DNA from: a virus
Taxonomy: Duplodnaviria > Caudoviricetes
Strand: one strand, 5' to 3'
Length of the DNA stretch: 64,000 bases
IMG/VR virus record: IMGVR_UViG_3300033513_000003
Span: 7,533 to 71,532 of that record
This document shows, piece after piece, positions 839-37,352 of the stretch. A model generated the notes under the pieces. That model was not told the DNA's origin. It did no database searches and saw only the letters and a program-made list of their open reading frames with translations. How positions within the stretch are numbered: position 1 is the stretch's first letter; each line of letters starts with the position of its first letter. The position numbers and the translations under genes are program-made.

Positions 839-977
839 GCTGATGCTCCTTGTAAGTGTTAGAGTGGTTGGAGATGCCAGTCTCGCGAACCACATGTATT
901 TATGCATCTTTTCCTTTTCGTTGACATTTTCTATTATTTGGGTATAATGACCACATCTACTGACGAGAGGTGTGATC

Positions 978-1430
978 ATGGCGGCAATTAAAGATAAAGT
1001 TTTTCCTGCTGGTCGATATTATATTGGGGATTTGTGTTATTGTAACGCTCTTGGCAAGCACGACGACCGCTGGGATCGCATCTGCAAGATGATGTTCCCT
1101 GACGGTAACCGTGACGATCCTGGCACTCATACCATCGACGGCATCGAGTTCTGGTATCACTGCACAGCTTACGGTGACGGCGAGTATGACAGCAACAGCC
1201 GATACACATTCCCTGTCGATGCAGGCATCATCGGTATCGTCTCGGCTGCGGTTGCTGAGTCTGAAGGCTCCTACGGCGGGCATATCATCGAATTTGCGCG
1301 GCCCTTCCAGCCGTACTACGCGAATGGCACATTCTACATCGGCCACCTCGAGATCGACACCGATCCGAGGTCCGACGATGACTACAACGAAGACGAAGAC
1401 AACGAAGACGACGAGTACGACGGCAATTGA
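978..1430 (+). CDS. Hypothetical early protein with acidic C-terminal tail
   Basis: Follows repeat unit 920; YYIGDLCY...YGDGEY...FPVDAGIIG motif and D/E-rich tail. Confidence 0.8.
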   Translation: MAAIKDKVFPAGRYYIGDLCYCNALGKHDDRWDRICKMMFPDGNRDDPGTHTIDGIEFWYHCTAYGDGEYDSNSRYTFPVDAGIIGIVSAAVAESEGSYGGHIIEFARPFQPYYANGTFYIGHLEIDTDPRSDDDYNEDEDNEDDEYDGN

Positions 1431-1489
1431 CCAGTTGACATCTGGGGCAAAGTGCGTATAATGATTCTCCCCAACCGCGAAAGGTTCAT

Positions 1490-1768
1490 ATGAAGAAACT
1501 GTCTGACACCACGAAGTTCCGCATTGCCCTGGCTGACGCTGGCTTTGGCAAATACGCCCTCACGATTTTCAACGACAAAGGCAAGACGACCCGGCGCCTG
1601 AAACTGTACCAAGGTGCCCATGTCAATTCTGCGCCCCACAAGCAAAAGGTCAAGTTGGTTGAAAAGTTGCGTGACCAGTTCGGTGATCGCCTGCTGGCAG
1701 TAGGTCCGCATGAAGGGCTAATGTGGTGGGGCGTTACCAGCTCGGTGGTCGTGAAGCTGAAGTTGTAA
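1490..1768 (+). CDS. Hypothetical early protein, paralogue of 3857-4138
   Basis: Shares TKFR.AL, NDK.KT.RRLKL, QFGDRL and SVVV.LK with 3857-4138. Confidence 0.8.
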   Translation: MKKLSDTTKFRIALADAGFGKYALTIFNDKGKTTRRLKLYQGAHVNSAPHKQKVKLVEKLRDQFGDRLLAVGPHEGLMWWGVTSSVVVKLKL

Positions 1769-1838
1769 GTGACCAGTTGACATTTTCCCCCTAATGGGGG
1801 AGAATGACCAAACTGTCAATCACAAAGAGAGAAAACAA

Positions 1839-2135
1839 ATGAGCACAGCCGAACGCCTGAAGACATACAACGAGTTGCGCGAATCCGCAAAACAACTCGT
1901 TCGCGATGCCGTGTCCGATGCATGCGACTTCCTGAACGACATAATGTGTGATCCTGAGGCGCGTGACATGGAATTCAGCATCAACGCGCTGATCGAGCAA
2001 TCGGTCACCATGTGCGGCAACATCCTCGATCCCATTGAATACAAGGCCGAAGTCAGCGATGCGATGAAACAAGCAATCCGCGAATACGTGTTCGAATACG
2101 CCGGTTTCGCTGTCGTGGGGAGGGAAAAGAAATGA
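1839..2135 (+). CDS. Hypothetical early protein
   Basis: GAGAGAAAACAAATG leader after repeat 1776. Confidence 0.75.
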   Translation: MSTAERLKTYNELRESAKQLVRDAVSDACDFLNDIMCDPEARDMEFSINALIEQSVTMCGNILDPIEYKAEVSDAMKQAIREYVFEYAGFAVVGREKK

Positions 2136-2290
2136 CACGAGGCGCCTTCCTGACCCTGACATCCATCCTCACCGTTTGCATCTACGAGGGCTCCGACAAC
2201 GTGTGGTATGCCGAAGCCGCCTTCGTCTTCGGTTTCATCCAAACGATGATCGTATCGACGATTCTCGACTGGCTGAAGACGAATTTGTAA
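2132..2290 (+). CDS. Small hydrophobic protein (52 aa)
   Basis: ATGA overlap with the upstream stop; MTRGAFLTLTSILTVCIY...; translated by hand. Confidence 0.6.
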   Translation: MTRGAFLTLTSILTVCIYEGSDNVWYAEAAFVFGFIQTMIVSTILDWLKTNL

Positions 2291-2398
2291 CTGGTGTATA
2301 CGATCCTACACAACCAGATCGTGGCGACACAAGAAGCCATTGATAAGTTGACCCCAAAGCCGTAATGATGTAAAGTGCTCTTCAGCAATGGAGGGCAC

Positions 2399-2563
2399 AT
2401 GAAGAAGTTAGCTGTTGTTGCGGTACTGGTTGGTTTTTGTTTCGACCTGGTGAAAAGCGGATACATCCAACATCACATGCAGTATGAATGGCGTGAGATG
2501 GTGGAACGTGATCGTGCAGACATCAAGGCGCAATGCGAAGCAATAAACTGTTGGCATTTGTGA
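2399..2563 (+). CDS. Small protein with hydrophobic N-terminus
   Basis: GGAGGG RBS after repeat 2347; MKKLAVVAVLVGFC. Confidence 0.65.
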   Translation: MKKLAVVAVLVGFCFDLVKSGYIQHHMQYEWREMVERDRADIKAQCEAINCWHL

Positions 2564-2812
2564 TAGAAGGAGGATGATGGATCCATACTTATGCATGGAG
2601 CCGAGACAGTAAGCGCACCTGAGACAACGGCGCAGTAGACGTTTGATGGATGGCCATGACCGTCAGACGCGACGTGATTGATTCCGCATGGATAGCTGGC
2701 AACAGCTAGGACGTAAGTGAGACCGCGCGAAGAGCCTCACAGCAGATAATGGACTGCTACACCTATTGATTGCAACACCCCAGGATGACCACCATCCTGG
2801 GTTTTTCTTTTC
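2564..2812 (+). ncRNA. Candidate structured non-coding RNA ending in an intrinsic terminator
   Basis: Several hairpins (TAGCTG-gcaa-CAGCTA with a GNRA loop; CGTTTGATGG/CCGTCAGACG; GTGAG/CTCAC; AGCAG/CTGCT), six ANGGA motifs and no convincing ORF. Confidence 0.5.
2778..2812 (+). terminator. Rho-independent terminator
   Basis: CCCAGGATG-accac-CATCCTGGG followed by TTTTTCTTTT. Confidence 0.85.
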
Positions 2813-2893
2813 TTGTTGACACTGTCCCCTTATTGAGGGATAATGGCCACAGTTCAGTACACATAGTACTAGTAAACACAAAGAGATGAACAT

Positions 2894-3028
2894 ATGTTTG
2901 TTGATGACTATGGCAGGCCCGCTTCTACTAGTAAACATTATCACCTTGGTGATCGTGTTGTGTTCTTCGGCTCCTGCATCACCGGCTGCGGGCTCGTGAT
3001 CCTCTGGCTGTCGGGGGCTCTCGGCTAG
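2894..3028 (+). CDS. Small membrane protein (44 aa)
   Basis: After repeat 2815; MFVDDYGRPA...VVFFGSCITGCGLVILWLSGALG; translated by hand. Confidence 0.6.
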   Translation: MFVDDYGRPASTSKHYHLGDRVVFFGSCITGCGLVILWLSGALG

Positions 3029-3411
3029 TTACTAGTAGACAATGCGCTATAGAAGTTCACTATCTTTACGTGTTCTTCTATAGTTCCGTTGTTGCGGATT
3101 CGGTTAGCTCGCATCGACACCACAATTGTGTTTTCAGGAGTATAACCTTTGGTAAAGTCGAGTCTATCCAGAGATGGGGAATTGTCATCGCGGTACTTAC
3201 CATTCGAGAAAGTAAGAGGAATTCCAAGCACCGGACAGACTTCCGGAAACACAATATTGTCTGATGTGATGGTAAACTCTAAATCGTTTTCCTTTGCTCG
3301 GGCCCGAGCTCGCTGAATGAAGAGTTTTATTCTTCTTTCGCGTGATAGTGTGTCTGACTTGTTTCTTGCTCGGTAACGAGCCTTTGCTGCCAATTGTGCT
3401 TTCGTCAACAT
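3025..3411 (-). CDS. HNH (His-Me finger) homing endonuclease-like protein
   Basis: CPVLGIPL...SPSLDRLD...GYTPENTIVVSMRAN motif; late promoter and GGAGG RBS upstream. Confidence 0.8.
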   Translation of the reverse strand: MLTKAQLAAKARYRARNKSDTLSRERRIKLFIQRARARAKENDLEFTITSDNIVFPEVCPVLGIPLTFSNGKYRDDNSPSLDRLDFTKGYTPENTIVVSMRANRIRNNGTIEEHVKIVNFYSALSTSN

Positions 3412-3740
3412 GATACAATAACCTCCCCTAATAGTCTAGTATAGACTATTTATGAGAGGTACCCTGTCCACGTGGGTAGTGGACATGGACCCGAAATGGT
3501 ACCTACCCAGAATGGGCAATGGGACTGTGACATATTGTGAACCTTACATCGTCACCAAACCACAGTCAAAGGTCAACAGCATTATGAAAATTTAAATAGT
3601 CGATGGCCAGTTGAAGAAACTCTGGGTTTTCTCTAAATGACCAAGCCCCTTGTTGCAGGCGTTATCAACGCTGAGTGACCAGTTGACCTTTTTCCCCTAA
3701 TAGGGGAAGATGCTTGTCCGTTAAACATGAAAGGTAATGA

Positions 3741-3845
3741 ATGACACGTCAAGTTACACCTCAAGAGCAGAATGCCGCACGTGATGCCGCAATCATGCAT
3801 CTCATCAACCAAATGCGCACTCAGAACGCATACGTCAAGATCTGA
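3741..3845 (+). CDS. Small hypothetical protein (34 aa)
   Basis: After repeat 3682 with GAAAGG RBS; MTRQVTPQEQNAARD... Confidence 0.55.
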   Translation: MTRQVTPQEQNAARDAAIMHLINQMRTQNAYVKI

Positions 3846-3856
3846 ACGAGGGCAAC

Positions 3857-4138
3857 ATGAGAAAACGTAGCGATGTCACAAAGTTCCGTACGGCGCTGAA
3901 GGCGGTTGGTTTTCACTACAACCAGGCAGCGTTCTACAACGACAAGCGCAAGACCTGCCGTAGGCTGAAGCTGCAACATGCCGATGGTTTCCTGCGCGCT
4001 CCTCAGTCTACCAAAGATGAGTTCGTTCGTCAACTGCAAAATCAGTTCGGTGACCGGTTGATTTCCGCTCAGCCGCACGAATACCGGCATAACTGCTGGG
4101 GCACTGTCAAGTCTGTTGTCGTGACACTGAAAGACTGA
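3857..4138 (+). CDS. Hypothetical early protein, paralogue of 1490-1768
   Basis: GAGGG RBS; shared motifs as above. Confidence 0.8.
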   Translation: MRKRSDVTKFRTALKAVGFHYNQAAFYNDKRKTCRRLKLQHADGFLRAPQSTKDEFVRQLQNQFGDRLISAQPHEYRHNCWGTVKSVVVTLKD

Positions 4139-4204
4139 CCAGTTGACCTTTTCCCCTAATTGGGGGAAAGTGGAGTTGTAACAGTTAAACAACGAGAGGC
4201 CAAT

Positions 4205-4252
4205 ATGTACGACACATTCGACAGTGCAATGAAGAAGTGGAACCGCAAATAA
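4205..4252 (+). CDS. 15-aa micro-ORF with its own promoter unit
   Basis: Repeat 4142, GAGAGG RBS, MYDTFDSAMKKWNRK*, then the next repeat at 4256. Confidence 0.5.
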   Translation: MYDTFDSAMKKWNRK

Positions 4253-4316
4253 GCGGTTGACAAATTGGTCAGTTAGGGTGATAATGCTCTCACTGACCAA
4301 CACGAGGATAAAAACA

Positions 4317-4643
4317 ATGACACGCATTCACGATACACTCCGCACTGAACATGGCGTCAAGTCAACGACGCGTTCAATCACAGGATCGAGTCTGTTCCGA
4401 CCGCTGCCTGATGCGAAGCATGACCTGGTGAAGAAGTATTTCGGCTCGTCGTTCGCAACACAGCGAAAAGACAAGTACTCAAGCACGCACAAATTCACGG
4501 TGTGTGGCGAACTCGTGACACTCTACATGAGTTGTGGCGAGTGGCGGTTTGGTGCAGGCAAAAACGTTCGTGGTAATCCCTTTGTAATCAAGCAGTTGGA
4601 TGCGATCCAAAAGCTGCTTGAAGGTCCACAGTATGAAGAGTAA
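4317..4643 (+). CDS. Hypothetical early protein
   Basis: GAGGA RBS after repeat 4256. Confidence 0.75.
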   Translation: MTRIHDTLRTEHGVKSTTRSITGSSLFRPLPDAKHDLVKKYFGSSFATQRKDKYSSTHKFTVCGELVTLYMSCGEWRFGAGKNVRGNPFVIKQLDAIQKLLEGPQYEE

Positions 4644-4707
4644 CCAGTTGACAGTTGGTCTGTGATAGGGTACAATGTGCCCTATCAACTGACGAAAGGG
4701 TACACAA

Positions 4708-5049
4708 ATGGCACACGTAATCTACAACAAAGAATCCACCATCATCCTCTGCGATCGCCACAGCTGGGAAGGCAACACCTACAAGACTGAGCGTGCCGCA
4801 AAGGCAGCTCTGACACGCATCGAGAATGCCTTCAAAGCCGATCCCAACAACCGCATGGCAAGGTGGGATGTCATGGGTGGTGTTCCGTTCGACCGCAACA
4901 ACTTCGCTATCGCCGAAGCAAGCGTGTTCCACAGCACTATCGAGAAAAAGAAGACTGTGCGCAACCTGTTGTCGGGCAAGCCTGTCGAAATCGCCGTCAA
5001 CACACCTCTCTGCTGCGATCCTTCCAGCGAAACATATCACTGCATGTGA
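4708..5049 (+). CDS. Conserved-looking phage hypothetical protein
   Basis: After repeat 4647; C-terminal NTPLCCDPSSETY motif recalled from other phage early proteins. Confidence 0.75.
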   Translation: MAHVIYNKESTIILCDRHSWEGNTYKTERAAKAALTRIENAFKADPNNRMARWDVMGGVPFDRNNFAIAEASVFHSTIEKKKTVRNLLSGKPVEIAVNTPLCCDPSSETYHCM

Positions 5050-5111
5050 TGTTGACATTGTGGCCACTTTAGGGTAAAGTGGCCACATCAACTGACGACA
5101 AGAGAGAAAAC

Positions 5112-5324
5112 ATGACTGATTGCTACCATGATGTGCAAGTAGGTGACGAAGTGCTGGTGCGTTCTGGTTTCGGTAATGGGCCATTGCATCGTGGCACTGT
5201 TATAGCAGTGCTTGCTGATGTCAAGGATGGTTATCCTGGCATCGACTACAAGCTCGCCAACAACGAGCAATTCTGGGCATATAGCGAACAAATTCAAGGC
5301 ATTACACGCAAGGCTGCTGGTTGA
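5112..5324 (+). CDS. Small SH3/KOW-like beta-barrel protein
   Basis: VQVGDEVLV...GTVIAV pattern; stop codon lies inside the next -35 box. Confidence 0.65.
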   Translation: MTDCYHDVQVGDEVLVRSGFGNGPLHRGTVIAVLADVKDGYPGIDYKLANNEQFWAYSEQIQGITRKAAG

Positions 5325-5376
5325 CTTTTTGGTCATTTGGGGTATAATGGTCACATCAACTGACGAAAGGTACAAC

Positions 5377-5697
5377 ATGGCAAAAGCACCGAAGACGACA
5401 CCCATCGCCAAGACAATCACCAAAGGCAGGCAGGGTGTGATCTATCGCGAGATGCTGAGTGTCGACGGCAAGAAGCTGCGTATCGACATCGAAAGCGACT
5501 CGCACGCCTTCCAGAGCCACGCACGCATCGAGATCTACAATCCGACCGAGCTGAAGTGGAACAACCTGGCATCGATCCACTATGCCGCGATGAAAACGCC
5601 TGCACAGCTGTATTACTCGTCGGCTGGCATGCAAGAGCACAATTTTACCACAGATCGCAACGAATTGCTACGCCAAGCGTTTGCAATTATTCTGTGA
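5377..5697 (+). CDS. Hypothetical early protein
   Basis: AAAGG RBS after repeat 5320. Confidence 0.75.
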   Translation: MAKAPKTTPIAKTITKGRQGVIYREMLSVDGKKLRIDIESDSHAFQSHARIEIYNPTELKWNNLASIHYAAMKTPAQLYYSSAGMQEHNFTTDRNELLRQAFAIIL

Positions 5698-5767
5698 GTG
5701 ACCAGTTGACTTTGTGGTCACTTTAGGGTAAAGTGGCCACATCAACTGACGACAAGAGAGAAAACAA

Positions 5768-6145
5768 ATGAACATAGCACAGCTGAAAGTCAATGACAAA
5801 GTGGCAGTGGCACGCATGGGTAACTGGGAAAACCACAGCCAAGGCATCTACGTCGTTACAAAGATCAACAAGGTGCGCATACACGTGAAGCGTGAGACAG
5901 ACGGCTATGAGCGTGAATTCAGCGCTAATACCGGCCGTGAACTGGGCAAGAGCGATAGCAAGTATCGTGCTGCTTACCTCGAGAGTGTCGAATATCAGAA
6001 CCTTCGCACTGCCATACGCCAACACAACCTGGAAGTCAACGGTGCCTGGACGGCACTCCAAGAAGCAGCTTCCAGCAAAAGCATCGCTGAGGTCAACAAG
6101 GCACTGGCAAAATTAAAAGCTGTTGGCATAGTGATCGGTGGTTGA
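5768..6145 (+). CDS. Hypothetical early protein
   Basis: After repeat 5705; stop lies inside the next -35 box. Confidence 0.75.
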   Translation: MNIAQLKVNDKVAVARMGNWENHSQGIYVVTKINKVRIHVKRETDGYEREFSANTGRELGKSDSKYRAAYLESVEYQNLRTAIRQHNLEVNGAWTALQEAASSKSIAEVNKALAKLKAVGIVIGG

Positions 6146-6202
6146 CTTTTTGGTCAATTGGGGTATAATGGTCACATCAACTGACGACATGAGGGCAAAC
6201 AA

Positions 6203-6541
6203 ATGAGCAACAAGATCATGTACTGGAACGGCAACGGCGCACACCAAGCACTGTACGAGAAGCTGAACGAGCTGATCCCGGCTGAAGGCGAAGTCGCTGA
6301 GCCCCGCAAGAATCGCGCACTCGAAAAGCTGCGCAAAGCTGCAAACTGCTACTATGACCTGTTTAACAACGGTCTTGGCAACCGTGCAGCTGAGTTCCGC
6401 CAAGTCTTCGGTTTCGGTGGCACGTCTATCGCAAAGACACGCGAGTTCTACAGCGACAGGCTCGAGCGCTGCATGGATGAGATCATCCTGAAAGCAGCAC
6501 ATGAGCAGGGCCTGTTGACTTTTTGGCCATTTAGAGTATAA
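6203..6541 (+). CDS. Conserved-looking phage hypothetical protein
   Basis: YWNGNG...LIPAEG...YYDLFNNGL motif; C-terminus reads through the next promoter. Confidence 0.75.
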   Translation: MSNKIMYWNGNGAHQALYEKLNELIPAEGEVAEPRKNRALEKLRKAANCYYDLFNNGLGNRAAEFRQVFGFGGTSIAKTREFYSDRLERCMDEIILKAAHEQGLLTFWPFRV

Positions 6542-6578
6542 TGTACCTCATCAACTGACAACACAAAGAGAGAACAGC

Positions 6579-6881
6579 ATGGCACGCGATACACAAGACG
6601 CACTGAACGAGTTCATCGACCAAGAGGGCCTGTACCACACTGAAGGCCGTCGTGGCATCGAAAACCTGGCACGTATTGTCAATACGCTCGGCTACCAAGA
6701 TCCACAGCGCTACGGCCAGTTTCGTGGGGCGTCGTTGGGTGACATCTTCACCTTCCTCGAAGACAATCCCGGCGCCATTGAGGCACTGGTTGAGTGGATC
6801 GGTCAACAGCAATCGACCGACTGGGCCGAAGCACTGAACGCTCAACTGCCTGAAGAAGAAGGTGAAGACGACCAAAAATAA
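6579..6881 (+). CDS. Acidic hypothetical early protein
   Basis: FLEDNPGAIEALVEWI motif, D/E rich. Confidence 0.75.
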   Translation: MARDTQDALNEFIDQEGLYHTEGRRGIENLARIVNTLGYQDPQRYGQFRGASLGDIFTFLEDNPGAIEALVEWIGQQQSTDWAEALNAQLPEEEGEDDQK

Positions 6882-6949
6882 GTTGACCTTTTCCTGAATT
6901 TGGGTATAATGGGCACTGTCATCTGACAACAACACAAGAGAGAAAACAA

Positions 6950-7345
6950 ATGAACAAACTTTCCGCAAATCAGCAAACCATCGTCGACGCAATCACTTCC
7001 GGCCTCGACACCGCAGCCAAGATCGCCGAGAAGACTGGCCTGACGAAAGCAGCAGTGTCCGCCAACATGAAGCCGCTGCGTGACAAGGGCATCATCACCA
7101 CCGCCGAAGTCGACGGCCATGTCGTGATGAGCCTGACCGGCGAAGCCAAAGCAGCACGTGTCGATGCAGCATTCGACAAAGCCACTGCTGCCAAGAAGAC
7201 CGCACAGCCTGTGATCTTGGTTGCACCTCGCGAAATCCCCAAGTATCTCGGCGGCCGTCCGCGTGATGTCGTGCAGGCGCTGATCGCTGGTGGCTACAGC
7301 AAGAAGGCAGCGAAGGCTCACGTATACGACGGCAAGGCCCTGTAA
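6950..7345 (+). CDS. Winged-helix DNA-binding protein
   Basis: TAAKIAEKTGLTKAAVSANMKPLRDKGII helix-turn-helix plus wing pattern; Ala/Lys-rich C-terminus. Confidence 0.65.
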   Translation: MNKLSANQQTIVDAITSGLDTAAKIAEKTGLTKAAVSANMKPLRDKGIITTAEVDGHVVMSLTGEAKAARVDAAFDKATAAKKTAQPVILVAPREIPKYLGGRPRDVVQALIAGGYSKKAAKAHVYDGKAL

Positions 7346-7391
7346 TCAACGACCACTGAACTCGGGGAGAAGCTTGTTGCCTTTCTCCCCG

Positions 7392-7731
7392 TAAATTGGC
7401 TTCCCAGTGTAGACCACACACTAGCTTACTAGACAGCGGTATAATGTGATCTACTTCATGTACAATACCTGTATCACGCGTAAGACGTTCTGCTTCTGCG
7501 TATAGTTCGTTGATAGCTTCGCTATTGGCCCAGGCCACTGTAGCTAGACGGAGTTGTGCTCGGCGCTTAGCATTTGTGGCACGGTGTTTGGGTTTATTGC
7601 GCTGATAGTAGTCGTTTTGAGATTGTAACACCTTTTCGTGGTTATTGGCACAGTACCGAGCTACTCGTTCAGCATTGTTTCTGCTGTTGATCTCTTTTAC
7701 TTTTTCCTTGTTAGCTTCTCTGTAAAGAAAT
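7392..7731 (-). pseudogene. HNH endonuclease fragment truncated at both ends
   Basis: YREANKEK repeats and HEVDHIIPL...CGLH motif; no start or RBS; bounded by repeat 7732 and the hairpin at 7363-7391. Confidence 0.7.
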
Positions 7732-7793
7732 GTTGACTTTTTGGTCAGATAGGGTACAATGTGCCCTATCGACTGACAACACAAGACCAAACC

Positions 7794-8003
7794 ATGCCTG
7801 ACACTATCGCACTGCACGAACGAGCCATACAAGCGATGGCTGAGCACATCGCAGCCTGCATCGTCTGGAATGCAACGGACAACGACGAAGATCCGTTGAC
7901 TTACTCGACAGATGCCGAGATCGTCGAGCTCTACTGCAAAGACGCTGCACGTGACATTTCCGGCCGTCTCGGCGAAGAAGTCAAGAAGATTGTGGCCCGT
8001 TGA
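7794..8003 (+). CDS. Small acidic hypothetical protein
   Basis: After repeat 7732; stop lies inside the next -35 box. Confidence 0.7.
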   Translation: MPDTIALHERAIQAMAEHIAACIVWNATDNDEDPLTYSTDAEIVELYCKDAARDISGRLGEEVKKIVAR

Positions 8004-8031
8004 CCTCTGGCCACAATTAGGGTAGAATGTT

Positions 8032-8138
8032 CTTCATCAGTTGTTACGCCTGTCATAGTTTAATGGAAAACGTACTCGATACCGCGCGGGGTACTTGCTG
8101 GACTTCCAACCAGCTGACAGACGCAACAACTGATGAAG
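8032..8138 (+). ncRNA. tRNA-like cloverleaf on a 14-bp basal stem (not a canonical tRNA)
   Basis: Perfect inverted repeat 8032-8045/8125-8138; inside CTGTCA/TGACAG acceptor-like, TA-GTTT-aatgga-AAAC D-arm, TACTC/GGGTA arm with 11-nt loop, GCTGG/CCAGC arm; no CCA; directly downstream of promoter 7999. Confidence 0.6.
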
Positions 8139-8146
8139 TAGTAATA

Positions 8147-8378
8147 GAACACTTAGCCGGCGCGTAATTTAAAGAGCCTCGCCCGAGAAAGACGGTCTAC
8201 GAGGTGGATAAAATGAACGCCTGTTCGAAGTATGCGGAGCATAGGGCAGTAGGGAACTCGGTGTGATGGCCGAGGGAACGAAATCCGGGAACATCGCCCC
8301 GGTTAGATCTGGAATCCGAACGCATACGGAAGATAGGACGAGTGGTGGTTCGAGCCCATCCGCCCCGGCTAAGTGCTC
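8147..8378 (+). ncRNA. Large tRNA-like RNA with expanded variable region
   Basis: Basal inverted repeat GAACACTTAGCCGG/CCGGCTAAGTGCTC; T-arm GGTGG-TTCGAGC-CCATC; internal helices CCTCG/CGAGG, GTATGCG/CGCATAC, CTCGG/CCGAG, CCGGG/CCCGG. Confidence 0.6.
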
Positions 8379-8444
8379 TGTTGACCTTTTGGTCATTTAG
8401 GGTATAATGATCTCCATCAACTGACAACACAAAGAGAGATCAAA

Positions 8445-8879
8445 ATGACCTTTGCAATCGGCACCGTACTCGAAGTTAAGACACGCGATCATGGCACCAA
8501 GAACTTCGTCGTTGAAGGCTTCCGCGAAGACATGTACATGCGTATGCGCTGCCAAAGCGATAGCAAGATGACGATGACACTGCATCCTGAGCATGTGGCA
8601 CGCATCAAAGCAAACGGCGGCGAAGATGGCATCAAGGTGCTGAACTGTCAGAACCTGCAAGACGTTGTCGTAAGGGCAACCAACGTGATAGTGCCAGTTG
8701 CTCCTGTGGAAGTCGTTAAAACGGCTTCCGCGAAGTCTGAAGGCCCTTCTAAGAAGGAACGTGCAGCAGCGATTCGTGCTACAAATCCGACCGCAACACG
8801 CAAAGAACTGATCGCGATGTTCATGGAACAACTCAACATGACACATGCGGGAGCCAGCACATATTCCTCGTATCGGTAA
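8445..8879 (+). CDS. Early protein with putative C-terminal DNA-binding helical domain
   Basis: SKKERA...RKELIAMFMEQLNMTHAGASTY motif. Confidence 0.7.
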   Translation: MTFAIGTVLEVKTRDHGTKNFVVEGFREDMYMRMRCQSDSKMTMTLHPEHVARIKANGGEDGIKVLNCQNLQDVVVRATNVIVPVAPVEVVKTASAKSEGPSKKERAAAIRATNPTATRKELIAMFMEQLNMTHAGASTYSSYR

Positions 8880-8901
8880 TTGTTGAAGCGCCTGCGTCTG
8901 T

Positions 8902-8933
8902 CATAAATACCTCTGTACACCAACGGAGGTATT
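8902..8933 (+). promoter_or_regulatory. T4-like late promoter overlapping an RBS-sequestering hairpin
   Basis: CATAAATA; AATACCTCT (8906-8914) pairs with GGAGGTATT (8925-8933). Confidence 0.75.
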
Positions 8934-9743
8934 ATGGCAACCAAAATTTGTAAAGACTGTCACAAAGAGAAACCAAGCGAACAATTCTACACGAATCCGA
9001 AAGGATATCAACGGAAGACTTGTAACAGCTGCATCACGGAATGGAATCGTATGTCCCAGCCGCTACGTGAGTCAGCCAAGGCAATGAGGGCGGCAGCTAA
9101 TCGTACACACAAGACGTGTCCGAAGTGCAAGGAGGAGTTGCCTGTTGAATCATTCTCCATTAGCAAGCATAATGCCGATGGCAGGAATGCTTACTGTAGG
9201 GCGTGCGATAGCGTACTGTCTAAAGCAAGCAAGGCTAAGGGCAAGCTCTCTGTCGATCAGCAACCAATAGAGAAGACGTGCGCTAAATGCAAGCAGACAT
9301 TCCCCATAGCTGCATTCGGCTCTAACACCAGTAACAAGGACGGATACAACTGCTACTGCAAAGAATGCAATAGGAGCTTTTGGCATAATGCAGATGATGA
9401 CAAGCGTAAGCGGTTCTTGTTAACTCGCATCAAGTCGAAATGCAAGAAGTACAATCTGCCATTCGATCTAACGCTCGACGACATCGTGATCCCTGAGGTA
9501 TGTCCAGTGCTAGGTATTCCGCTCAAATTCGGCGTCAAGCGCCAGGATATGTATAGGCAGAAGTATGACGACACAACACTCGATAGTCCATCAGTCGGCA
9601 GGATAATACCAGAACTCGGATATGTCAAGGGAAATATCGTCATCGTGTCGTTCCGTGCTAACAACATCAAGAACAATGCCACAATAGATGAGCTAGACAA
9701 GATCGCTACCTTCTATAAAAGGTTGACCTCGCCAGCAGAATAA
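8934..9743 (+). CDS. HNH homing endonuclease-like protein with three CxxC zinc modules
   Basis: Repeated K.C..C...K....F...CR.C modules and C-terminal CPVLGIPL...SPSVGRI...GYVKGN. Confidence 0.8.
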   Translation: MATKICKDCHKEKPSEQFYTNPKGYQRKTCNSCITEWNRMSQPLRESAKAMRAAANRTHKTCPKCKEELPVESFSISKHNADGRNAYCRACDSVLSKASKAKGKLSVDQQPIEKTCAKCKQTFPIAAFGSNTSNKDGYNCYCKECNRSFWHNADDDKRKRFLLTRIKSKCKKYNLPFDLTLDDIVIPEVCPVLGIPLKFGVKRQDMYRQKYDDTTLDSPSVGRIIPELGYVKGNIVIVSFRANNIKNNATIDELDKIATFYKRLTSPAE

Positions 9744-9779
9744 GAGACAATGGTCACCTCAACTGACGAAAGGTACATC

Positions 9780-10007
9780 ATGGCAACTCGCATTCACGTT
9801 TCCGACATCAGAATAGCATTTGACCGAGTCACTGGCAGGGTGGTACACAGCTGCAATGCCACGTTCACACCCGAAGTGGGACCAATTCACACTCGGTACG
9901 ATTGCACACTGCACTATATCGTGTCTCTGACGCACGGGCAAAATGCCTGTGTCATCAGCAATGCCGAAGAAGTGCTGTGTCACGTTATTGAAAATCTTAT
10001 GTGTTGA
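9780..10007 (+). CDS. Hypothetical early protein
   Basis: After repeat 9722; stop inside the next -35 box. Confidence 0.7.
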   Translation: MATRIHVSDIRIAFDRVTGRVVHSCNATFTPEVGPIHTRYDCTLHYIVSLTHGQNACVISNAEEVLCHVIENLMC

Positions 10008-10061
10008 CCTTTTGGTCACTTGGGGTATAATGATCTCCATCAACTGACGAGAGAGAACGAT

Positions 10062-10289
10062 ATGGACGAAGCCACCATCAAGTACTTCGAAGACGACAAG
10101 AACGTCTACAAAGAACTGGGCGAGGCCCGCCAGGCCTTCAAGAAGGGCACCACCTTCGAGCAATACGACAACCTGATCAAGGGCCTCACCATCATGAGCC
10201 TCTACTGCTCCGAGGGCGTACTGCACATGGTGCACGCCACGATCGACGAAGCAATGACCCGGCAGGCGTACGCCATCACCATGCGTTGA
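10062..10289 (+). CDS. Hypothetical early protein
   Basis: After repeat 10003; stop inside the next -35 box. Confidence 0.7.
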   Translation: MDEATIKYFEDDKNVYKELGEARQAFKKGTTFEQYDNLIKGLTIMSLYCSEGVLHMVHATIDEAMTRQAYAITMR

Positions 10290-10345
10290 CCTTTTGGTCA
10301 GTTAGGGTATAATGTACTCCATCAACTGACGAGAGACAACGACAA

Positions 10346-10573
10346 ATGACCAAAGCCGAACTGTTCGAGATGCTGTCCCATCTGCCCGACGATGCTGAGA
10401 TCCGTATGCAGCAGCCTGCACACGACTACTGGCGCTCGCAGCTTGCCGTTGACTTCAGCGGCGTAGACGAGGTTAAAATCGACTATAGCCAGTATCACAA
10501 CAACGACAAGATCATCGAAGAAGGCAAAGAAGAAGACGACATCCCCCTGCAAACTGTGTACGTGCTCTGTTGA
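10346..10573 (+). CDS. Small acidic hypothetical protein
   Basis: After repeat 10285; MTKAELFEMLSHLPDDAEI. Confidence 0.7.
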   Translation: MTKAELFEMLSHLPDDAEIRMQQPAHDYWRSQLAVDFSGVDEVKIDYSQYHNNDKIIEEGKEEDDIPLQTVYVLC

Positions 10574-10634
10574 CCAAGTGACCAAAATAGGGTACAATGC
10601 TTCTCATCAACTGACAACACAAAGAGAGAACAAT

Positions 10635-10829
10635 ATGACAATCGCCGATGATGCTCAACGCCTGAAAGACCTGCGCAAAGAGATCAACAAGGACGGGCGT
10701 ACACATGCCAGTCAATGTTCCGACGCCGATCGCGCCGCTATGCAGCGGATACTCGATGTCCATATCGCTCGAGGCACTGCGACACCGAAGATGCTTCGTG
10801 CTGCAAAGGCACATGGCTTGAAGTGTTGA
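10635..10829 (+). CDS. Hypothetical early protein
   Basis: After repeat 10569. Confidence 0.7.
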   Translation: MTIADDAQRLKDLRKEINKDGRTHASQCSDADRAAMQRILDVHIARGTATPKMLRAAKAHGLKC

Positions 10830-10882
10830 TCTTTCCCTCGAAAGAGGGGAGAATGGTCACATCAATTAACGAGCGAGACAAC

Positions 10883-11248
10883 ATGATTGCAACGTTGGCA
10901 TACAAAGAAGCTGAGGCGGTCGACAAGGCCCTGAAAGCAATCTTCAAGCACGTGTACGTTGTGTACTACGAGATCATCGGCGATCGCTGCAACGGCTCCT
11001 GGCTCGTCAAGGCAAAGAACAAGACTCAGGCGCGGAAGCTGATCCGTGCTCAGTACGACGACTACGTCGTCCGCGAAGTGCAGCCTTTCGTTGAGTACTG
11101 CGAAGACATGGGCGTGCAGGCCTTCGAAGCGTTCACTGAGAGCATCAAGGAAGCCCTCGAAGAAGACAACTGGCTGCGCAAAGAGTACGTGATCATGCCG
11201 AACATGGTCGACTTCGACTTCGTGCACCAACTCGAGTGTGGCACTTGA
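10883..11248 (+). CDS. Hypothetical early protein
   Basis: After repeat 10825. Confidence 0.7.
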   Translation: MIATLAYKEAEAVDKALKAIFKHVYVVYYEIIGDRCNGSWLVKAKNKTQARKLIRAQYDDYVVREVQPFVEYCEDMGVQAFEAFTESIKEALEEDNWLRKEYVIMPNMVDFDFVHQLECGT

Positions 11249-11300
11249 CTTTTTGGTCACTTGGGGTATAATGTACTCCATCAACTGACGAGAGATCAAC

Positions 11301-11594
11301 ATGGACATTCAAATTGGTATCATCCCTGGCGGGCGCGCAGGTAGCATGTACAAGCGCCGTGACAACATCACGATCGTTGACGGTGCCTCAACTGACGACG
11401 TCGTCGACTTGATGAGCGACGCCATGTGCCTTTGCAACGATGAGGACGACGTCGCTCGCATCCTCGACGACGTGAAGGCGGGTGAAGTTGTTGTTGAGTG
11501 GGATTCCTTTGGTGAAGGCGTAGTCGTATACGCACCCGTTGGCACCCGCGATGATACGATGGAACTCAAAGCATATCGCATGTACAACGAATAA
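11301..11594 (+). CDS. Small acidic hypothetical protein
   Basis: After repeat 11244. Confidence 0.7.
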   Translation: MDIQIGIIPGGRAGSMYKRRDNITIVDGASTDDVVDLMSDAMCLCNDEDDVARILDDVKAGEVVVEWDSFGEGVVVYAPVGTRDDTMELKAYRMYNE

Positions 11595-11632
11595 GAAGTT
11601 GACATTAACCCAAACTCAGGTATAATTGCAAC

Positions 11633-11746
11633 ATGTTTCCAAAATACAAAGAATACAGCTGGTACGATCGCGTCACCAGACACCTGCAAGCAATCCAACA
11701 CCAAGAGTGGCTGGCTTCGCTCCGTCGTAAGGCAGGTGGACGCTGA
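11633..11746 (+). CDS. Probable leaderless 37-aa protein
   Basis: ATG 6 nt after TATAAT (11621-11626), no RBS; MFPKYKEYSWYDRV...; TGATG coupling to the next ORF. Confidence 0.55.
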   Translation: MFPKYKEYSWYDRVTRHLQAIQHQEWLASLRRKAGGR

Positions 11747-11988
11747 TGGCTATCGTACGTATCACCGACCTCCATGCTCAGGCACCGAACGGCAACAGCC
11801 ATGCTCCGATGCGCAACAAGGGTGGGCTGATCTGGGGCACGATGAAGTCGACCGAGAACGACGACATCAACATCTACGGCACGCTCGACTACTGCATCGA
11901 CTATGCAACGAAGCACGACCTCGAGATCATCAACGCTCAAGAAGTACTCTGGTGGCTGCATCGCAACGTTGACTTTGTCTCGAATTAA
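11746..11988 (+). CDS. Hypothetical early protein
   Basis: Translationally coupled to 11633-11746. Confidence 0.65.
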   Translation: MAIVRITDLHAQAPNGNSHAPMRNKGGLIWGTMKSTENDDINIYGTLDYCIDYATKHDLEIINAQEVLWWLHRNVDFVSN

Positions 11989-12671
11989 GGCTGAGACTCA
12001 CCAACTGATTCAATAGCCAATTGCTTCAAGCGGTGCTTCTCCTTCATGACTGCACGCTGTTTAGCCTTCTGTTCTTCAGATTTAGGTTTACCTTTTAGTG
12101 GTGACGGTCCACGTTTCTTTGCTGCTTCCGATATCTTATGACGTGTCTCTTCGGAGTGGTGCTTACCATACATTGGATTCTTCTCTCCCTGCAAAGCTAG
12201 AGACTTTGCTTGCTTTGTTTCCTCTGACACTAGGTAAACGCGGCTACGTCGGGTTGCCGATATCTTAGCCTTCTGCTCTTCAGTCATGGGGATACCTTTC
12301 TTGGTACTTGGCCTGCCCTTCCTTGCAACAGACATCTTTTGCCTAGTCTCTTCATTGATATAGAAGTTGCGCCCTCCGTTTGACTTATTAAGCCATCTCG
12401 AATCAGCCGCAGCGTTAAGACGACGTAGTACCTTATTCTCCCACTGCAATGCTTGCTCCTTTGTACTAAAGGTACGTCGTACCGTGGCTTCAAAGGCATC
12501 TGCACCATGCTTCTCAACCAACGCTCGAACCGTATTGGATGAAGTGAAGTATGTTACCCAAAGTTCAGATGGATTAGCAACTTTATGTCTGTTGTGCCCG
12601 AAGCTGACTCCATAGTATAATTGTCCGGTAAGTTTAAATTTGATAACATATGTGTAAGGGATATATTCCAT
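11985..12671 (-). CDS. GIY-YIG-type homing endonuclease with NUMOD3 repeats
   Basis: YTYVIK...LYYGVS...WLNKSNGG and HSEETRHKISEA repeats; CATAAATACCTCT...GGAGG leader. Confidence 0.8.
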   Translation of the reverse strand: MEYIPYTYVIKFKLTGQLYYGVSFGHNRHKVANPSELWVTYFTSSNTVRALVEKHGADAFEATVRRTFSTKEQALQWENKVLRRLNAAADSRWLNKSNGGRNFYINEETRQKMSVARKGRPSTKKGIPMTEEQKAKISATRRSRVYLVSEETKQAKSLALQGEKNPMYGKHHSEETRHKISEAAKKRGPSPLKGKPKSEEQKAKQRAVMKEKHRLKQLAIESVGESQP

Positions 12672-12703
12672 TTGCACTCCTCCATAAACGTATAGAGGTA
12701 TTT

Positions 12704-12829
12704 ATGAAAAAGTATCAACGTGCATACACCTTAGTCGATCTGCAGATCGCGATCTTCTTCCTGGTCGTGGTCGTTGGCGGCGGTGGCGTTGTGTACGTCG
12801 CCTGGCACTTCATCTCGAAATTCTGGTAA
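12704..12829 (+). CDS. 41-aa type IV prepilin-like membrane peptide
   Basis: GAGG RBS; MKKYQRA|YTLVDLQIAIFFLVVVVGGGG resembles the class III signal G|FTLxE plus hydrophobic helix. Confidence 0.6.
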   Translation: MKKYQRAYTLVDLQIAIFFLVVVVGGGGVVYVAWHFISKFW

Positions 12830-13170
12830 TGAGAACAGATTCCGGTATCAAGATGGGCAAGGCCATCATGGCAGTTGGCCTTATCATCATGGTCGTCGGC
12901 ACTCTGCTCGGCGCCTACTACGCCGACAAAACCAATGCTGAACACAACAAGCCTGTCGAGCAGCCCCTCGCCATCACGCTCACTGACCTCCGTGAAGCCG
13001 ATGCCATGTGTCAGAAGCTGGGGCAACATGCTGCAGGCACGAAGACTGAAGTCGTCTGCGATCTCCATGCACCTGACGGTACCTGCGCCCTCTACGCCAA
13101 GAAGACAACGACACACTGCGGCAAAGCGCACGATATCACCATCTCCTTCATAACGAGGACACTCGACTAA
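12829..13170 (+). CDS. Membrane-anchored Cys-containing protein
   Basis: TAATG coupling; N-terminal TM segment and four Cys. Confidence 0.65.
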   Translation: MRTDSGIKMGKAIMAVGLIIMVVGTLLGAYYADKTNAEHNKPVEQPLAITLTDLREADAMCQKLGQHAAGTKTEVVCDLHAPDGTCALYAKKTTTHCGKAHDITISFITRTLD

Positions 13171-13224
13171 TTCCTGGCATTAGGGTACAATGCTTCTCAT
13201 CAGTTAACAACAGAGAGGTGAAGC

Positions 13225-13311
13225 ATGGAAGTTCTTGGCGCAAACGTAGTAGCAGTGGTTGATGTTGCAGTCACGCTGATCGCAGTCATGTTTGGTGCCT
13301 TCACAGCATGA
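13225..13311 (+). CDS. 28-aa hydrophobic peptide
   Basis: After repeat 13162 with GAGAGG RBS; MEVLGANVVAVVDVAVTLIAVMFGAFTA. Confidence 0.5.
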   Translation: MEVLGANVVAVVDVAVTLIAVMFGAFTA

Positions 13312-13381
13312 ACGGCAACCTTGCCTGATGTCAATTTGATGTCCCCTCTCATAAATACCTCTGACCATCAAGGAGGTAGTT

Positions 13382-13822
13382 ATGAAGGAATGTTCAAAGT
13401 GCAAGGAAACAAAACCAACGTCTGAGTTCCACAAGGACGCTAGGCATCCAACTGGGTATAAGTGCTGGTGCAAGGCTTGCGCCAAAGCCAAGAGGAACCC
13501 AGAACAGCTAAGGCTGTCGAGCTCCAAGTGGTATGCTAACCACACCGACACCTTTAGAAGTAGAGCAAGGCAGCGTAGGTATGGTATCACACCTGACCAA
13601 TACAATCAACTGTTGACAGAACAGCAACACTGTTGTGCTATCTGCCAGCAACCATTCACGGAACATAAGCGGGCTGTCCTTACACCATGTGTAGATCATT
13701 GCCATGCATCTGGAGCAGTGAGAGGCATACTGTGTAGCGGATGCAATAGGATGCTAGGGCTAGCTAAGGACAACAGAGACATATTGCTCAAGGCAGTTGA
13801 CTATTTAGATAAGGTAGGGTAA
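13382..13822 (+). CDS. Endonuclease VII-like homing endonuclease
   Basis: CAICQ...CVDHCHASGAVRGILCSGCNRMLG motif; N-terminal zinc module; late promoter/hairpin leader at 13350-13381. Confidence 0.85.
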   Translation: MKECSKCKETKPTSEFHKDARHPTGYKCWCKACAKAKRNPEQLRLSSSKWYANHTDTFRSRARQRRYGITPDQYNQLLTEQQHCCAICQQPFTEHKRAVLTPCVDHCHASGAVRGILCSGCNRMLGLAKDNRDILLKAVDYLDKVG

Positions 13823-37342: not shown

Positions 37343-37352
37343 TCACTTTCCT

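Follow-up and report, generated by a model that had tools for sequence, protein, structure and literature searches.

A candidate non-decoding RNA of tRNA-Gln type in an early promoter cassette of a phage

Introduction

The tRNA genes of phages are usually seen either as aids to codon usage or as substitutes for tRNAs that host defences have destroyed. The tRNA cluster of bacteriophage T4 also gives rise to two small stable RNAs, rnaC (139 nt, species 1) and rnaD (119 nt, species 2; NC_000866, positions 70908-71171), neither of which has an annotated function. The Lak megaphages carry tRNAs with "enigmatic introns" (Devoto et al. 2019, PMC6784885). Bacterial Y RNAs set a tRNA-mimicking module on a long helix, can be cut as two RNAs from one precursor and also occur in phages (Chen et al. 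2014, PMC4201824).

In this work we analysed a window of 64 kb, which forms part of a 71.5-kb viral record from a giant phage (IMGVR_UViG_3300033513_000003), and within it two adjacent elements, RNA #1 and RNA #2, for which an original prediction had proposed a tRNA-mimicking structure. All coordinates are those of the window, and the features described lie on its plus strand.

Results

RNA #2 occupies positions 8147-8378 and is closed by a helix formed by its two ends. This helix comprises a basal extension (8147-8157 with 8368-8378), in which 10 of 11 pairs are Watson-Crick, and an acceptor-like stem (8158-8164 with 8361-8367) with six of seven positions paired and one C.C mismatch. The extended acceptor stem of the original prediction is therefore present, and is better described as a single 18-bp helix with 16 Watson-Crick pairs and two mismatches, which can be extended to 22 nt (8143-8164 with 8361-8382), the pairing then reaching from 8143 to 8382. 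The 5' acceptor strand CGGCGCG is followed by the dinucleotide U8 A9 (TA at 8165-8166; 8158-8166 together). On the opposite side, a canonical T-arm, GGTGG-TTCGAGC-CCATC (8344-8360), lies flush with the 3' acceptor strand CGCCCCG, which continues through the discriminator G and CUA into the 3' strand of the basal extension (8361-8378). As in a tRNA, a 7-bp acceptor stem is combined with a T-arm of 5 bp and a 7-nt loop of the form TTCRANN, stacked on its 3' strand. The CUA that follows the discriminator is one base off CCA, and both G73 and CUA are fully paired with the 5' leader.

Imposing the T-arm on the predicted fold costs 0.2 kcal/mol (-80.1 versus -80.3 kcal/mol for the minimum free energy structure) and gives a four-way, tRNA-like junction. 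In this fold a putative D-arm (8167-8214) would be closed by a stem of four A-U pairs (8167-8170 with 8211-8214), and its loop would hold a hairpin (8176-8205; strands CCTCG at 8177-8181 and CGAGG at 8200-8204, with an 18-nt loop) and end in GG-A-U-A, which may be compared with G18 G19 ... A21 of tRNAs. A predicted branched domain of 123 nt (8218-8340), closed by helices of 8 and 7 bp, comes next in the position of the anticodon arm, or of the variable arm, and contains the hexamer GGGAAC three times (at 8252, 8274 and 8287), as against 0.11 copies expected. The boundaries, T-arm, T8A9 and CCTCG/CGAGG hairpin with its 18-nt loop were all found as first described. The assignment of the arms is another matter, since the hairpin had been read as the anticodon arm and the insert as a variable arm; an alternative cloverleaf, with a 4-bp D-stem, the hairpin as an insertion in the D-loop and the 123-nt domain in place of the anticodon arm, appears to fit the modelled structure at least as well.

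An exhaustive scan of positions 8030-8385 found no anticodon-type hairpin, only the T-arm itself and one T-loop-like site with four of five positions. RNA #2 accordingly lacks the anticodon arm of a tRNA (5-bp stem, 7-nt loop, U33 and purine 37), and it also lacks the single-stranded N73-CCA end; further weak points of the resemblance are the D-stem made of four A-U pairs and the C.C mismatch in the acceptor stem.

Taken one by one, the components of this architecture are not rare. The T-arm motif occurs twice in the window where about 1.9 occurrences are expected, a T-arm adjoined by an acceptor with six of seven pairs is found on average nine times per shuffled window, and by arithmetic estimate about 0.5 stems of 18 bp with two mismatches are expected per window within 400 nt (0.06 for the 22-nt version). 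By the same kind of estimate, about 1e-5 cases per window are expected in which a T-arm directly adjoins a stem with 16 or more Watson-Crick pairs in 18 and the span does not exceed 300 nt. The signal is thus the joint arrangement of the T-arm and the long flush helix and not any single component. Moreover, among inverted repeats with arms within 400 nt in the whole window, the closing stem of RNA #1 (24 nt, 92% paired) ranks first and that of RNA #2 (22 nt, 86%) second. The folding energies of RNA #2 are less distinctive: the whole element has a z-score of -1.5, with 11 of 200 shuffled sequences equally stable, and neither the 123-nt insert (z -1.4) nor the 50-nt 5' arm (z -1.1) goes beyond shuffled sequences. 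Since the stability of the insert is at the level of shuffles, the nested helices of about 130 nt reported in the original prediction are a prediction and not an established feature.

The acceptor and T-arm of RNA #2 are identical at 29 of 34 positions to those of the tRNA-Gln(CUG) that the related jumbo phage XacN1 encodes (AP018399, 42943-43017), whereas 41 other tRNAs of related phages match at 18.3 ± 3.5 of 34 positions, the next best at 24. In the segment 8158-8166, which comprises the acceptor strand and U8 A9, the identity to the same tRNA is seven of nine positions. The T-arm and the 3' acceptor strand with G73 are identical to those of tRNA-Gln from Nevskiales and other bacteria, and RNA #2 retains G73, G2-C71 and G3-C70 of tRNA-Gln. 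Judged by this similarity, the acceptor and T-arm are of the tRNA-Gln type.

A sigma-70-type early promoter (TTGACC, 17 nt, TAGAAT) lies upstream at 8000-8028 as one copy of a repeated promoter cassette, the only copy in this region that is not followed by an open reading frame (ORF). Transcription from it would start at about 8035. RNA #1 (8032-8138) is cloverleaf-like, with a 24-nt closing stem (arms 8032-8055 and 8115-8138), and is strongly structured (z -5.6; none of 200 shuffles equally stable). It ends at 8138, leaving 8 nt before RNA #2. The repeat of the next promoter begins at 8378-8381, directly at the end of RNA #2; this promoter (TTGACC, 16 nt, TATAAT; 8381-8408) drives a gene for a 144-aa protein (8445-8879). 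The two RNAs exactly fill the 350-nt gap between the promoters at 8000 and 8381, where there is no plausible plus-strand ORF, and in the array of cassettes, which is otherwise tightly packed, other 350-nt spacers are absent. The sole long plus-strand frame (46 codons, 8027-8167) begins inside the -10 box, upstream of the expected start of transcription, and a protein-coding reading was rejected. RNA #1 and RNA #2 share one promoter and are built alike, each as a cloverleaf set on an extended stem and lacking a free CCA, and the tandem cassette proposed earlier for the pair holds. No plus-strand terminator was found between 8028 and 8381. ARAGORN found no intact tRNA gene in the 71.5-kb record, whereas the equivalent region of XacN1 is full of tRNAs.

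Comparison with Rfam, which the original prediction had proposed as a check, was carried out and revealed no known family. The tRNA model (RF00005; gathering score 29 bits) gave no match at E values up to 10, whether searched against 7950-8450 or against the entire record, and no other Rfam 15 family, including GOLLD, ROOL, ribozymes, 6S and RNase P, reached its gathering score in the window; the two matches obtained at E up to 10 were at chance level and on the minus strand. With default settings ARAGORN called no tRNA or tmRNA gene in the region, and its calls at thresholds of 70-80% were implausible, mutually overlapping tRNAs and tmRNAs, which we consider noise. The tmRNA model was also negative (no match at E up to 10), and the earlier view of a tRNA-like non-coding element that is neither a tmRNA nor a group I intron agrees with these results. 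Other candidates were rejected: a hammerhead ribozyme, suggested by CUGAUGA motifs, gave no Rfam match; a retron RNA is not accompanied by a reverse transcriptase in the record; for an antisense regulator, complementarity to other parts of the window does not exceed 11 nt; and GGA, expected to abound in a CsrA-type sponge, is not enriched (8 versus 6.4 expected).

Searches for relatives of RNA #2 gave no second member. The region 7700-8450 had no blastn match among 50,697 phage records, and exact and degenerate IMG/VR patterns built on the RNA #2 T-arm and acceptor, as well as a pattern of the junction type seen in locus L011, gave no useful match. The pattern combining the T-arm of RNA #1 with CTGATGAAG gave 46 matches, all in coding sequence and by chance, and the triple GGGAAC pattern at least 120, all unrelated. 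A 20-mer search of JGI metagenomes returned one match, to an unrelated high-GC phage. A covariance model of RNA #2 (R1) found only RNA #2 itself and ordinary tRNAs, in XacN1, CM1 and Xoo-sp13, which it matches through the outer helices. For P0002, the protein encoded upstream, there is no homologue; P0001, encoded downstream, has 15, with 46-60% identity, and in the eight contigs inspected that carry them ORFs, not RNA #2, lie upstream of the homologue. Judged by the helicase (74% identity) there is a single close relative, a 10-kb contig that lacks the RNA #2 region. Since no homologue was found, there is neither covariation nor a sign of purifying selection, and the "undescribed phage RNA class" of the original prediction is not claimable because none of the collections searched gave a second member. 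Its kind also has precedents in T4 rnaC and rnaD, in the Lak phage tRNA "introns" and in unannotated tRNA-like RNAs of XacN1.

These last RNAs belong to an unannotated, promoter-led island of non-coding RNAs, in a 2.5-kb stretch of XacN1 that appears "empty". Its members are, in order, a 200-nt stem-closed RNA (z -4.9), two tRNA-like elements (36857-36978 and 36988-37055) not called by ARAGORN, a tmRNA scoring 108-123 bits and a GOLLD RNA. A further tRNA-like RNA, of 150 nt, is found in locus L011 (5388-5539); it ends in CCA and has an 81-nt insert, and its similarity to RNA #2 (E 9.4) is not statistically significant.

Discussion

According to these data it is somewhat probable, at roughly 55%, that RNA #2 is a real, non-decoding RNA gene descended from a tRNA-Gln gene of the phage or proteobacterial type. 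Such a gene would have kept the canonical T-arm, U8 A9, the acceptor stem of 7 bp and a weak D-stem whose loop contains GG. It would have lost the anticodon arm, which a domain of about 123 nt replaces, gained a hairpin in the D region and changed N-CCA to G-CUA. Pairing of the former CCA end with the 5' leader prolongs the acceptor stem to a helix of 18 to 22 bp. A single copy of RNA #2 was found, and its expression and function are consequently what we infer rather than observe. Early transcription by host RNA polymerase would start from the promoter at 8000-8028 and yield both RNA #1 and RNA #2. Because no terminator follows, the mature ends must arise by processing, for which the terminal helices are probably substrates or stops, first for the double-strand-specific RNase III and then for tRNA-end nucleases (RNase P, RNase Z or exonucleases); such long helices would also protect the product. 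The RNA would be unable to decode, and most likely it would present the elbow and acceptor shape of a tRNA to a tRNA-binding factor of the host or phage, as a decoy or a dock. Alternatively, the tRNA body could be a stable chassis for the inserted domain.

A more specific proposal, which we consider tentative and rather doubtful, is that both RNAs are early-expressed, end-sealed decoys occupying a host factor that recognises the top half of tRNAs. They would then be RNAs derived from tRNA genes and reshaped to be no longer charged or cleaved as tRNAs are. Candidate targets would be a tRNA-targeting defence nuclease, RNase P or RNase Z, or an enzyme specific for tRNA-Gln, and the domain with the GGGAAC repeats might be a second binding platform.

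RNA #2 could instead be a decaying tRNA-Gln pseudogene with insertions, lying in a transcribed early region and having no function of its own. The missing anticodon and homologues, the acceptor mismatch, the change from CCA to CUA, an insert no more stable than shuffled sequences and a 71.5-kb fragment with no intact tRNA, as against the tRNA-rich equivalent region of XacN1, all speak for such decay. However, decay should erode acceptor pairing, and here 11 to 15 extra base pairs have been gained past the old tRNA ends; the neighbouring RNA #1 shows an equal gain, with its 24-nt stem, the T-arm is intact and the locus has its own promoter cassette. We therefore regard the pseudogene as possible but unlikely.

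It is quite improbable that the two units act at the DNA level, as miniature transposable elements, as hairpins for recombination of promoter cassettes or as an attP-like tRNA fragment. Each does have inverted repeats of 22-24 nt at its ends, both lie within an array of repeated promoter cassettes that bear palindromes of their own, and the 3' part of RNA #2 is the T-arm/acceptor segment usual in phage attachment sites. Nevertheless, each unit is present once in the 71.5-kb record, with no target-site duplication beside it, and the record encodes neither an integrase nor a reverse transcriptase. An attP site needs just the 3' part of a tRNA, whereas in RNA #2 the 5' acceptor strand that matches it, U8 A9 and a tRNA-like junction are found too. 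Moreover, its T-loop is correct only on the promoter strand.

That an inverted repeat and a T-arm-like motif simply happen to coincide in a spacer with no function seems very improbable. Every component alone is near chance level and the folding z-scores are weak, but the joint arrangement is expected far less than once per window, the similarity to tRNA-Gln is specific, at three standard deviations above other tRNAs, and RNA #2 exactly occupies the space from RNA #1 to the next promoter in an array with no comparable spacer.

There is even less reason to think that RNA #2 matures into a functional tRNA or tmRNA-like molecule that can be aminoacylated, once intervening sequences have been removed, the ends processed and CCA added. 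A discriminator followed by CUA is compatible with 3' cleavage by RNase Z and with the action of the CCA-adding enzyme, and the tRNA-Gln elements G73, G2-C71 and G3-C70 are retained. Lak phages have tRNAs with unexplained introns (PMC6784885) and XacN1 encodes a tmRNA. Splicing, however, would have no anticodon stem-loop or remnant of one to restore, the insert has at its base an uninterrupted helix that contains no loop, and the Rfam tRNA and tmRNA models and ARAGORN were negative. Just one small frame (17-20 codons, 8204/8213-8266) is preceded by a Shine-Dalgarno-like sequence, and it does not end like a tmRNA tag; with G3-C70 instead of G3.U70, alanine charging as in tmRNA is ruled out.

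A Y RNA-like partner of a Ro60/Rsr protein, as are YrlA and YrlB, has as slight a chance: the plan of a tRNA-like module on a long helix, with no free CCA and two RNAs per precursor, is shared (PMC4201824), and the L011 RNA weakly matches the YrlA model (24 bits, E 0.013), but dimeric tRNAs are known to give false YrlA matches, against which the authors cautioned (PMC4201824), YrlA (RF02553; gathering score 69 bits) has no match in the window or whole record, the order of arms is opposite, the Ro-binding motif GNCGAAN0-1G is missing, with no GNCGAA between 7977 and 8504, and no TROVE (Ro60) or RtcB gene is found in 71.5 kb, which is only about 20% of a genome.

If RNA #2 is indeed a non-decoding gene of tRNA-Gln descent, the locus would be a clean, small example of a phage tRNA gene turned to something else, in which the top half of a glutamine tRNA is retained, the anticodon dropped, the ends sealed and a promoter of its own acquired, and transcription of the product would fall within the first minutes of infection. 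Since the sigma-70 promoter and the RNAs fit on a fragment of 400 bp, direct testing in a laboratory host is feasible. RNA genes of this sort in giant phages are missed by standard annotation with ARAGORN and Rfam. Were the decoy proposal true, the tRNA-shaped RNAs of XacN1, L011 and other giant phages could be one unrecognised class of RNAs for counter-defence or takeover.

Compared with a canonical tRNA-Gln (RF00005; tRNA-Gln(CUG) of XacN1), RNA #2 shares the acceptor sequence, U8 A9, the T-arm and the discriminator G, and differs by having no anticodon arm, a D-arm that is either degenerate or interrupted by an insertion, about 170 extra nucleotides and a paired CUA in place of CCA. The tRNA-like domain of tmRNA (RF00023 clan) is similar in its acceptor and T-arm, reduced D region and large insert between them, although in RNA #2 there is no CCA, G3-C70 replaces G3.U70, and neither a tag frame nor a pseudoknot signature is seen. 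In YrlA, too, the two ends form a long helix that bears a tRNA-like module, leaving no free CCA; in its permuted order T precedes D and the helix is on the anticodon side, whereas in RNA #2 the D region precedes the T-arm and the long helix continues the acceptor. The RNAs of Lak phages, XacN1 and L011 are, as RNA #2 is, tRNA shapes of giant phages with a good acceptor and T-arm around a large foreign middle, missed by standard finders. All of these have a free end, for which CCA is encoded in XacN1 and L011, and the Lak tRNAs have a recognisable anticodon and are read as intron-bearing, in contrast to the end-sealed RNA #2 with no anticodon.

The closest known parallel is that of T4. There rnaD and rnaC are small RNAs in tandem, with a spacer of 6 nt (8 nt here), in a tRNA-type genomic context, and rnaC, which is also missed by the Rfam tRNA model, has a canonical T-arm near its 3' end, paired ends, long inserted arms replacing the anticodon arm and no CCA. 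No homology by sequence or model is detectable between rnaC and RNA #2 (R1 with filters off scores rnaC at 3.1 bits, E 2), and the likeness is a resemblance and not membership of one family. In its predicted fold rnaC has a short closing stem of 3 + 2 pairs, as opposed to the 18 to 22-bp clamp of RNA #2; and whereas the T4 pair belongs to a tRNA operon, where it lies behind a tRNA gene, RNA #1 and RNA #2 form an early promoter cassette of their own in a record with no tRNA gene.

Architecture of RNA #1 and RNA #2

The two ends of each of the tandem candidate RNAs, RNA #1 (8032-8138, plus strand) and RNA #2 (8147-8378, plus strand), pair into a long closing helix, and these helices rank first and second, respectively, among the inverted repeats of the whole window with arms up to 400 nt apart (24 nt at 92% for RNA #1, 22 nt at 86% for RNA #2). 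The terminal helix of RNA #2 fits exactly into the gap that separates RNA #1 from the next promoter. All the features that the original prediction listed for RNA #2 are present where it had placed them; however, the large insert it had described as structured could not be shown to be so, since the 123-nt inner domain does not stand out from shuffled sequences (z -1.4). Neither does the 5' arm (z -1.1), and the whole molecule folds no better than its shuffled controls (z -1.5). The folding energy of RNA #1 is far below that of shuffles (z -5.6).

Taken singly, the elements of RNA #2 are expected by chance. The window contains two T-arm motifs of five pairs with a TTCRANN loop against about 1.9 expected by an arithmetic estimate, shuffled windows contain about nine such motifs each with a 6/7 acceptor partner within 300 nt, and a helix of 18 bp with two mismatches should turn up about 0.5 times per window. 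The combination of the T-arm (8344-8360) with the adjoining long helix is not trivial: for a canonical T-arm that sits flush, with no spacer, on the 3' strand of a long helix paired at 16/18 positions by Watson-Crick rules, chance would give about 1e-5 cases per window.

Imposing the T-arm on the fold of RNA #2 costs 0.2 kcal/mol relative to the unconstrained optimum and yields a four-way junction, in which the joint acceptor and clamp helix meets a 4-bp A-U "D-stem" with the CCTCG hairpin in a loop that terminates in GG-A-U-A, the 123-nt arm with a continuous helix at its base, and the T-arm. According to this modeled fold the CCTCG hairpin may lie within the D-loop; alternatively, as originally assigned, it may be the anticodon arm, with the large domain as the variable arm. 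The centre of RNA #2 also contains three copies of GGGAAC within 41 nt (8252, 8274 and 8287; 0.11 expected from shuffles), with only one more copy elsewhere on the plus strand of the window.

Probable origin from a tRNA-Gln gene

A covariance model built from RNA #2 (R1) found only ordinary tRNAs in four related jumbo phage genomes, aligned via their outer helices, and among them was the tRNA-Gln(CUG) of Xanthomonas phage XacN1. This tRNA and RNA #2 agree in the T-stem with its G.U pair, in most of the T-loop, in the 3' acceptor strand and in the discriminator G, and at 7/9 positions of the 5' acceptor strand and U8 A9 taken together. Overall, 29/34 compared positions are identical, while 41 tRNAs from XacN1, CM1, Xoo-sp13 and L011 (a Logan contig) average 18.3 at the same positions (sd 3.5), with a runner-up of 24. 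A scan of bacterial genomes with the T-arm and acceptor segment matched two kinds of tRNA: tRNA-Gln of bacteria including Nevskiales, which shares G73 with RNA #2, and tRNA-Tyr of Spirosomataceae, in which the 5' strand and discriminator differ. The tRNA-like character proposed for RNA #2 is upheld as tRNA derivation by the acceptor and T-arm match, and tRNA-Gln ancestry of the top half is established together with the architecture. After G73, RNA #2 has CUA in place of the CCA of tRNAs, and this CUA pairs with the 5' leader. These comparisons make a former tRNA-Gln gene the best reading of RNA #2, which now has neither a decoding arm nor a free CCA; no anticodon-type hairpin was found anywhere in the cassette.

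ARAGORN made no tRNA or tmRNA call in the window or in the remainder of the record. No Rfam family reached its gathering score, and at E up to 10 there were only two matches, both on the minus strand and at chance level. A YrlA RNA is ruled out by the model score, the order of the arms and the lack of a Ro-binding motif; the absence of a Ro60 gene also opposes it, which is a weak point as the record covers only about one-fifth of the genome. A tmRNA is ruled out by G3-C70 and the lack of a CCA and of a tag frame. Retron, attP, MITE, antisense and CsrA-sponge readings were checked and are unsupported.

Genomic setting and conservation

CheckV estimates a completeness of only about 20% for the 71.5-kb source record, which makes it a jumbo phage fragment. 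Its helicase shares 44% identity with the XacN1 helicase and 35-43% with the helicases of other phages of 300-470 kb. Small genes are arrayed over positions ~900-13,800 of the window, each preceded by a repeated sigma-70-type promoter of its own (GTTGAC, 16-17 nt, TATAAT-like) and by a conserved leader. Plus-strand promoters are found at 7733-7760, 8000-8028 and 8381-8408, with no plus-strand terminators found between them, and the 350 nt downstream of the second contain no credible plus-strand ORF. Besides a 45-codon frame starting at GTG 8263, which continues across the next promoter, only one frame longer than 21 codons occurs within the RNAs. This 46-codon frame (8027-8167) crosses RNA #1, and its ATG overlaps the -10 box (TAGAATG). 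This places its start in the -10 hexamer region, ahead of the point where transcription is expected to begin; only read-through from the upstream promoter would allow the frame to be translated, and we judged it non-coding.

No second copy of RNA #2 was found: searches at the nucleotide level in GenBank phages, IMG/VR and JGI metagenomes were either negative or gave chance matches. The tandem cassette with RNA #1 stands, but RNA #2 is an orphan, and a phage RNA class is not demonstrated. The protein of the upstream gene has no homologue; that of the downstream gene (P0001, 144 aa, 8445-8879) has homologues at 46-60% identity, which in eight contigs have ORFs upstream. Two independent Logan assemblies of one phage, L011 and L012, both break at position 1, 45 nt before the P0001 homologue begins, a sign that a repeat, a genome end or a structure difficult to assemble may lie where the window has the RNA cassette. 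An identical 20-nt T-arm segment is present in a tRNA-like stretch of a high-GC soil phage contig (L069, 1769-1855, minus strand), where ARAGORN makes no call and R1 aligns an 87-nt tRNA-shaped element at 15.5 bits.

Possible expression and role

Host polymerase would transcribe RNA #1 and RNA #2 early as a single transcript, which may continue into the next cassette, and the ends of both RNAs would be made by processing. At 18 to 24 bp, the clamps match RNase III substrates in size; they could be cut by this enzyme and would also block 3' exonucleases. The main argument for a function is that a decaying pseudogene is unlikely to acquire 11-15 extra Watson-Crick pairs past the old tRNA ends, and to do so twice, side by side. 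RNA #2 could present the upper half of a tRNA to a factor that binds tRNAs, as decoy or dock, or its tRNA body could act as a stable scaffold for the inserted domain; display or carriage is the most likely role. We give a probability of roughly 0.55 to RNA #2 being a real, processed, non-decoding tRNA-derived RNA, and consider the specific reading as a tRNA decoy improbable.

Comparison with known systems

L011, which encodes a P0001 homologue of 53% identity, has an ORF-less stretch of 860 nt downstream of an early-type promoter. A tRNA-like RNA of about 150 nt at the start of this stretch (5388-5539) combines a perfect 7-bp acceptor stem and a class II-like D-arm with a T-arm, A73 and CCA; its 81-nt middle holds a second T-arm and D-arm. 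It scores 35.5 bits with the Rfam tRNA model, ARAGORN being silent at default settings, and 24 bits with YrlA, the type of false positive against which the YrlA authors caution in the case of dimeric tRNAs. Some tRNAs of Lak megaphages carry unexplained inserts, and one of these inserts may contain a tRNA gene of its own (PMC6784885); the L011 RNA resembles that intron. The short motifs it has in common with the window cassette are not significant. A further ~640 nt of ORF-less sequence (5545-6215) has no Rfam match; it includes an element closed by a 30-nt stem (5972-6001/6138-6167) and a segment (6006-6087) that is a 76-83% match to unannotated DNA of the N4-like Klebsiella and Salmonella phages MY01, KpCHEMY26 and vB_SalP_TR2. 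Another relative (L015, 2810-3242) has an early-type promoter followed by ~370 nt with neither ORFs nor long inverted repeats, a further candidate ncRNA cassette of unrelated sequence.

XacN1 (L082, AP018399.1) contains 2.5 kb unannotated in GenBank inside its tRNA region (36560-39053). Behind a promoter-like site, as read from the sequence, this island contains an RNA of 200 nt with a 24-nt closing stem (36656-36854, z -4.9), directly followed by a tRNA-like element with CCA (36857-36978) and a second tRNA-like element (36988-37055), neither called by ARAGORN, then a tmRNA (about 37177-37621, 108-123 bits, tag ANANTFDYALAA) and a GOLLD RNA (38570-38983, 227 bits). The L011 RNA and this island make elements of this kind credible in this phage group. 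The nearest published case is that of T4 rnaD and rnaC, with which RNA #2 has no detectable homology: they are tandem stable RNAs 6 nt apart, and rnaC, which does not match the tRNA model, has paired ends, long inserted arms and a canonical T-arm near its 3' end.
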